Shown in pieces: positions 24,348 to 24,996 of a stretch of DNA of 64,000 nt. The notes below the pieces were generated by a model that was not told the DNA's origin, did no database searches, and saw nothing but the letters and a program-made list of their open reading frames with translations. This stretch comes from Escherichia coli (GTDB taxonomy: Bacteria; Pseudomonadota; Gammaproteobacteria; Enterobacterales; Enterobacteriaceae). The position numbers and the translations under genes were made by a program. The DNA lies in NCBI RefSeq assembly GCF_016026235.1, contig NZ_CP065613.1; one strand, written 5' to 3'. Positions within the stretch are counted from its first letter, which is position 1, and each line of letters opens with the position of its first letter.

Positions 24348-24644
24348 TTATACCTCTGAATCAATATCAACCTGGTGGTGAGCAATGGTTTCAACCATGT
24401 ACCGGATGTGTTCTGCCATGCGCTCCTGAAACTCAACATCGTCATCAAACGCACGGGTAATGGCTTTTTTGCTGGCCCCGTGGCGTTGCAAATGATCGAT
24501 GCATAGCGATTCAAACAGGTGCTGGGGCAGGCCTTTTTCCATGTCGTCTGCCAGTTCTGCCTCTTTCTCTTCACGGGCGAGCTGCTGGTAGTGACGCGCC
24601 CAGCTCTGAGCCTCAAGACGATCCTGAATGTAATAAGCGTTCAT
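24348..24644 (-). CDS. gam: Gam, host RecBCD inhibitor (short 98-aa form)
   Basis: 98-aa [34 protein letters not shown]... with AGGAG upstream; the lambda long-form N-terminus is encoded upstream (start 24765) in a different frame and stops after 50 codons. Confidence 0.85.
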
Positions 24645-24719
24645 GGCTGAACTCCTGAAAATGGCTGTGAAAATATCGCCCGCGAAATGCCAGGCTGATT
24701 AGGAAAACAGGAAAGGGGG

Positions 24720-24863
24720 TTAGTGAATGCTTTTGCTTGATCTCAGTTTCAGTATTAATATCCATTTTTTATAAGCGTCGACGGCTTCACGAAACATCTT
24801 TTCATCGCCAATAGAAGTGGCGATAGTGAATTTAGTCTGGATAGCCATAAGTGTTTTATCCAT
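24720..24863 (-). CDS. kil: Kil (host killing / division inhibition)
   Basis: 47 aa [47 protein letters not shown]. Confidence 0.8.
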
Positions 24864-24996
24864 TTTTGGGAACTCCTGGCTGATTAAGTACGTCGATGAG
24901 TCGTTTCCATCCGTCACGTAATTTACGGGTGATTCGTTCAAGTAAAGATTCGGAAGGGCAGCCAGCAACAGGCCACCCTGCAATGGCATATTGCAT
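24856..24996 (-). CDS. cIII: cIII (FtsH inhibitor), 46 codons here
   Basis: [46 protein letters not shown] then TAA; the downstream in-frame codons NTYGYPD match the lambda C-terminus as recalled. Confidence 0.7.
   Translation of the reverse strand: MQYAIAGWPVAGCPSESLLERITRKLRDGWKRLIDVLNQPGVPKNG

Follow-up and report, generated by a model that had tools for sequence, protein, structure and literature searches.

In phage lambda (NC_001416), gam occupies positions 32816-33232 and gives rise to a long form, GamL (138 aa), and a short form, GamS (98 aa). It is for GamS, which corresponds to residues 41-138 of the long ORF, that a structure with RecBCD has been solved (PMC5218532). GamL is active as well when expressed: in K. 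pneumoniae, its potentiation of quinolones was no weaker than that of GamS (PMC5218532), so that loss of GamL could have a phenotype. For lambda CIII, the passage of PMC1838920 that cites Kornitzer 1991 describes residues 14-37, an amphipathic helix, as essential and sufficient for activity. A shortened CIII is encoded by phage HK620 (AF335538, AAK28863), whose record, annotated in 2001, bears the remark 'protein shorter than similar proteins due internal stop codon'. The Kil protein of phage HK629 is an active division inhibitor, and Kil lacking its five N-terminal residues is still active (PMC11762379).

The DNA analysed here is a stretch of 64,000 nt from Escherichia coli (GCF_016026235.1, contig NZ_CP065613.1), referred to as the window, in which we studied the segment 24348-24996. 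The region is the pL operon of a lambdoid prophage, and the lambda gene order cIII-kil-gam-bet-exo is found identically in the window. The features considered are the following.

25787-26170, minus strand: N
25102-25785, minus strand: gene of the Nmad5 family (Pfam Nmad5, 239 bits), directly upstream of cIII, where lambda has ea10
24856-24996, minus strand: cIII, 46 codons plus TAA, HK620-type short allele (ORF list, Pfam Lambda_CIII)
24856-24858, minus strand: early TAA stop of cIII, with base 24857 being A here and C in lambda (alignments)
24832-24855, minus strand: leftover of the lambda cIII tail that is no longer translated (NTYGYPD and the original TAA), inside kil
24720-24863, minus strand: kil, 47 codons, Q3K and F17S relative to lambda, with a lambda-type C-terminus carrying the RSSK motif
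24613-24765, minus strand: 50-codon ORF from the lambda GamL ATG, out of frame with gam (ORF list)
24658-24661, minus strand: run of four T (three in lambda), a +1 insertion separating the GamL start from gamS (alignment)
24652-24656, minus strand: gamS Shine-Dalgarno sequence AGGAG, 7 nt before the ATG at 24644 (sequence)
24348-24644, minus strand: gamS, encoding the 98-aa inhibitor of the host nuclease RecBCD (Pfam Gam, PDB chain matches)
23557-24342, minus strand: bet, RecT-family annealing protein, the next gene of the pL operon (ORF list, annotation of homologous loci)
22880-23560, minus strand: exo, lambda exonuclease of the YqaJ family (ORF list, annotation of homologous loci)
29259-29558, plus strand: cII-like gene (ORF translation)

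A sequence-only reading of the segment had proposed that only the short form of Gam is encoded and that cIII terminates 8 codons early. From directly observed sequence states, haplotype structure, population frequencies and domain coverage we conclude, with high confidence, that this lambdoid prophage of a Shigella- or EIEC-type chromosome has, in its cIII-kil-gam segment, two alleles that are common and inherited and are not lesions.

The chromosome flanking the prophage (window positions 1-18200) contains an ipaH-type T3SS effector with NEL E3 ligase and LRR_TTSS domains, especially at 6760-8586, as well as the genes ybhC-ybhJ, which together indicate a Shigella- or EIEC-like host. A lambda-type integrase is encoded at 18297-19367, and the prophage lies near lambda attB. 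CP065611 and CP026836 are close relatives. In some otherwise near-identical relatives (L128, L130, L134 and L098), the position between N and cIII that is taken here by the Nmad5-family gene (25102-25785) holds other genes, which marks it as a swappable accessory-gene slot. Elsewhere in the window, a 968-aa ORF (32032-34938, plus strand) combines a Toprim primase domain with a LAGLIDADG homing-endonuclease-like domain in the middle of the protein, and looks like a primase/helicase carrying an intein. Immediately after the Q antiterminator gene (39156-39779) come genes for tRNA-Asn(GTT) and tRNA-Thr(TGT) (40040-40195, plus strand), which are followed by ORFs for DUF1327 and lysozyme. In Stx phages, tRNAs and the toxin genes occupy the position downstream of Q.

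To define the gam frame, the window was aligned with lambda NC_001416, phage 933W and a prophage of E. coli strain 90-3040. Compared to lambda, the window carries one extra T in the run at 24661-24658 (minus strand) and an adjacent T-to-C change, reading CCATTTTCAGGAG across the frameshift site against CTA-TTTCAGGAG / CTATTTCAGGAG in lambda. The extra T, which is common to the window, 933W and strain 90-3040, falls within the interval between 24645 and 24720 where an indel had been suspected. With T3 (CTATTTCAGG), lambda keeps the upstream ATG in frame and has an annotated ORF of 138 aa, whereas the window, with T4 (CCATTTTCAGG), encodes GamS only. Because this single extra T is inserted immediately before the gamS ribosome-binding site, the GamL ATG (24765) is out of frame with GamS, lying 121 nt from the GamS ATG as compared to 120 nt in lambda, and the ORF starting there stops after 50 codons (24765-24613). 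This leaves the 98-aa ORF (24644-24348) as the sole Gam reading frame and bears out the proposal that the long-form N-terminus is encoded in a different frame. The 98-aa ORF does share the frame of kil, as had also been stated: the two starts are 219 nt (73 codons) apart, with two stops between them. A Kil-GamS fusion produced by stop read-through in this shared frame was considered and ruled out, as these two stops separate the proteins. The claims had been tied to the question of whether lambda itself has the same frames and stop position; in the alignment, both the lambda frame and the lambda stop differ from those of the window.

The extra T sits 1 nt upstream of the gamS Shine-Dalgarno sequence and leaves AGGAG and its spacing to the ATG unaltered. 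Comparison of the window and lambda minimum-free-energy folds, which have the same shape, revealed no predicted change in RNA structure at the gamS start caused by the extra T.

An indel in a short homopolymer is located at a usual site of error, and a miscount in the T-run together with a base-call error in cIII would make both alleles artefacts of sequencing or assembly. We regard the chance of this as negligible. The sequence recurs at 100% identity over 5144 bp in an independent NCBI assembly (L133) and at 99.98% in two others, the exact GamS and 46-aa CIII proteins were each found on at least 1000 contigs (exact-sequence look-up), and the cIII stop is accompanied by six other linked HK620-type SNPs. 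Moreover, in 78 scored loci T4 always occurred with the neighbouring C and T3 always with the neighbouring T. This perfect linkage implies that the two states are old, stable haplotypes and neither slippage noise nor phase variation; phase variation at the T-run, which is only 3-4 nt long, was ruled out on these grounds.

Exact matching against complete E. coli genomes detected the +1 59-mer of the window in 1990 of 3051 matching records and the lambda in-frame 58-mer in 762 of 3116. Among 120 IMG/VR loci plus the window and the lambda, 933W and 90-3040 references, lambda-type gam was in frame in 47 cases, shifted by +1 at the T-run in 28 and shifted by -1 in 5. The -1 allele, seen in IMG/VR loci, is a deletion in a C-run (ACCCCCTTTCC to ACCCCTTTCC). 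None of the three frame states affects GamS, which both of the independent frameshifts, +1 and -1, leave intact. In the records sampled, the +1 GamS-only state is carried by the majority of E. coli prophages. The +1 haplotype of the window also occurs in the gam genes of 933W and other Stx phages (AF125520), for which the 98-aa form alone is annotated, and gam is annotated with 297 nt, corresponding to 98 aa, in 933W and in RefSeq prophages.

At the protein level, residues 1-98 of GamS cover positions 1-98 of the Pfam Gam model (PF06064), which is exactly 98 positions long (216.7 bits; cut-off 25). GamS also matches the chains 5MBV_A and 2UUZ_A over residues 1-98 (E 1.3e-61), with 2 residues differing. 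The coding sequence and ribosome-binding site are nearly identical to those of lambda GamS, one residue being different in the window (S61A). The start signal, as read from the sequence, is GamS's own (AGGAG at 24656-24652 followed by ATG at 24644). We infer from these features that GamS activity is retained in the window. The gam gene represents the widespread 'GamS-only' haplotype, in which the extra T uncouples the GamL ATG; the untouched GamS would be translated from its own AGGAG-N7-ATG site. Its expected function would be ordinary: a GamS dimer would mimic a DNA end and block RecBCD, and this block would protect phage DNA and Red recombination substrates.

The high frequency of frameshifted alleles shows that the GamL extension is dispensable in most natural phages. 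Concerning the extension itself, segregating sites are denser in the 74-nt stretch that is exclusive to GamL (0.27 per nt) than anywhere else in the region (0.16 in gamS and 0.11 in the kil-only part), and both indels fall into this stretch. Changes synonymous in the GamL frame accounted for 9 of 20, against about 30% expected (p ~0.10, transition bias of 4), with 20 of 48 in GamS itself. Weak coding constraint may therefore act on this stretch in the in-frame lineages.

The 50-aa ORF sequence was found in exact form on 976 contigs (exact-sequence look-up), an occurrence that is a by-product of the common +1 haplotype. Profile searches including Pfam returned no family match for it, a search of NCBIfam yielded no useful matches for these small proteins, and inspection of the sequence identified no Shine-Dalgarno motif before the ATG at 24765. 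Most likely, the 50-codon ORF is not a gene. Programmed +1 ribosomal frameshifting or transcriptional slippage at the T-run might nevertheless yield a full-length GamL-like protein, or the ORF might encode a separate small hydrophobic peptide, given that the ATG upstream and the bulk of the extension are still there, that synonymous changes in the GamL frame are mildly over-represented, and that some assemblies annotate the ORF as a gene. We consider this extremely unlikely. Four T are too few for efficient slippage, a recognisable +1 frameshift context is missing, with AGGAG placed downstream of the T-run and not upstream, and the shift in the independent -1 allele has the opposite sign. The lack of a Shine-Dalgarno sequence and of any family match, the constraint placed on the first 15 codons by kil and not by the ORF itself, and the definition of the Pfam Gam family on 98 residues also count against this explanation.

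Taken more broadly, the frame of the GamL extension could be functional, either because the +1 haplotype gives rise to a small hydrophobic peptide of some 50 aa by independent translation or because GamL acts as a lineage-specific accessory isoform that alters the breadth of host nuclease or defence inhibition. We attach a very small probability to this idea; if it were true, the in-frame, +1 and -1 states would be functionally different phage variants.

Two further observations concern the same stretch. In some lambda-type IMG/VR loci, such as L031, L041 and L012, a TAA-to-TAC change at the kil stop extends kil to 54 aa (…SIHYPPSLFS), so that the ORF enters the GamL-only stretch, which provides more evidence that this stretch tolerates variable coding states. 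In addition, it includes a terminator-like hairpin at 24695-24678 (minus strand), formed by GCCTG...CGGGC and followed by a T-rich tail, at a place where lambda has a stronger stem (GCCCG). The hairpin may be one of the tL2-cluster sites; the lambda record J02459 has no terminator features annotated.

The second allele concerns cIII. Base 24857 is C in lambda and A in the window, converting Ser47 (TCA) into TAA. CIII ends with ...GVPKNG and the stop at 24858-24856, and NTYGYPD-TAA is still present in frame at 24855-24832, confirming what had been described for this gene: 46 residues are encoded instead of the 54 of lambda. The tail remnant is conserved because it is located inside kil. Residues 2-43 of the shortened protein match positions 1-42 of the 42 in Pfam Lambda_CIII (PF02061) with 104.4 bits (cut-off 25.7), and residues 14-37 (PSESLLERITRKLRDGWKRLIDVL) are identical to lambda at 23 of 24 positions (I36V), with R32 present. 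The missing tail lies outside both the Pfam model and residues 14-37. NCBI names the 46-aa protein 'protease FtsH-inhibitory lysogeny factor CIII'.

The window CIII is 100% identical to the HK620 protein and shows the same stop with the same linked SNPs; stop-allele cIII genes like that of HK620 are also found at the HK629, JEP4 and TL-2011a loci, and the viable temperate phages HK620 and HK629 have the identical or a near-identical 46-aa form. The stop allele was detected in 210 of 1430 matching records of complete E. coli genomes, in 76 of 228 phage records and in 39 of the 120 IMG/VR loci, its carriers including the temperate phages HK620, HK629, JEP4 and TL-2011a and many Stx2a phages. CIII-46 keeps residues 14-37 and would still act on FtsH; judged from its sequence, it most likely still inhibits this protease and stabilises CII.

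CII is the protein protected by CIII. The cII-like gene of the window (29259-29558) is apparently intact and includes a C-terminal tag, with a C-terminus (...TNKKRP..TERSEQIQMEF) that we take to match lambda CII. With this gene present, the CIII-CII-FtsH axis has its components.

Base 24857 is at the same time the first base of kil codon 3, where CAA (Gln) becomes AAA (Lys), so that the change causing the cIII stop also alters Kil (Q3K), in agreement with the sequence-only reading. Lambda Kil is a division inhibitor that depends on FtsZ/ZipA. Residues 2-32 of the window Kil cover Pfam Lambda_Kil (PF06301) completely (positions 1-31 of 31, 65.9 bits), and the protein keeps G19-D20 and the RSSK motif in addition to the helix-turn-helix core (aa 4-38). 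Q3K is situated inside the five dispensable N-terminal residues (PMC11762379), and the HK629 and HK620 Kil proteins likewise start with MDKTL. A second substitution was noted at codon 17 (24813-24815, minus strand), which is TCT (Ser) in the window and TTT (Phe) in lambda, 933W and HK620; F17S is specific to the lineage of the window and affects a residue of the predicted first helix in the Kil helix-turn-helix. The exact Kil protein was found on 96 contigs (exact-sequence look-up). Kil activity is probably retained, as far as motif and domain conservation can tell. The early cIII stop shortens the overlap of cIII and kil from 32 nt to 8 nt (ATGGATAA), and this shorter overlap could tighten the translational coupling of kil to cIII.

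Besides these genes, the prophage carries insertion elements. An IS110-family transposase gene (30063-31259, minus strand) abuts the end of the replication-region ORF 29721-30068, and the lysis region contains an IS3-family integrase-core ORF (42658-43476, minus strand). The prophage is probably defective. Furthermore, in the relative L131 (GCA_031665325.1), which is 100% identical on both sides, an IS3-family element is inserted inside cIII at about 24915-24917, indicating that cIII can be knocked out in this lineage. The IS elements and the possible defect make selection on these genes in this particular genome uncertain, and together with the interrupted cIII of L131 they are what decay would predict, with frameshift and stop as inactivating lesions arising under relaxed selection in an IS-ridden Shigella-type genome. 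This explanation is nonetheless highly unlikely. Both alleles are common to plaque-forming temperate phages (933W for gam; HK620, HK629 and JEP4 for cIII), they are present in hundreds to thousands of genomes, and the recognised functional units are complete for both. Alleles shared by viable phages and so many genomes must be older than this prophage and are not lesions peculiar to it, which supports the interpretation as common inherited alleles.

The origin of the cIII allele can be traced further in the alignment. In the 3' half of cIII the window has all HK620-type SNPs, among them I36V and three synonymous third-position changes preceding the stop, and in the second half of kil the bases switch to the lambda/933W type. 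Linkage in the IMG/VR loci shows the same association: the stop allele was combined with an HK620-type 37-aa kil in 32 loci and with a lambda-type kil in 6-7, and the TCA allele shows the reverse, with 6 loci having HK620-type kil versus at least 64 having lambda-type kil. The HK620-type SNPs and the kil linkage argue that the stop arrived in a recombined block and not as a fresh mutation. The 3' half of cIII is accordingly an HK620-type haplotype block joined by recombination to a lambda/933W-type 3' half of kil plus gam, with the crossover placed somewhere between 24857 and about 24786. With kil, a gene of 144 nt overlapping its neighbours, the locus offers a clear case of mosaic recombination within a single gene.

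Altogether, the short gam and cIII forms are not peculiar to this genome, and each allele was already known, gam from the 98-aa annotation in 933W and cIII from the internal stop noted for HK620. What the present analysis adds is the census: most natural lambda-type gam genes in the sampled records cannot encode GamL, and GamS is always kept. This supports GamS as the conserved functional product and the lambda 138-aa annotation as the exception, which is relevant to the choice between GamL and GamS constructs in recombineering, cell-free expression and work on RecBCD inhibition. The window resembles phages 933W and HK620 each in one part of the segment. Phage 933W has a full-length cIII of 54 aa, with TCA at codon 47, and a Kil with Q3, neither of which is found in the window; in HK620, a 37-aa Kil ending in RSK is followed by the unrelated genes hkaM and hkaL, whereas the window continues with lambda-type kil and gam.
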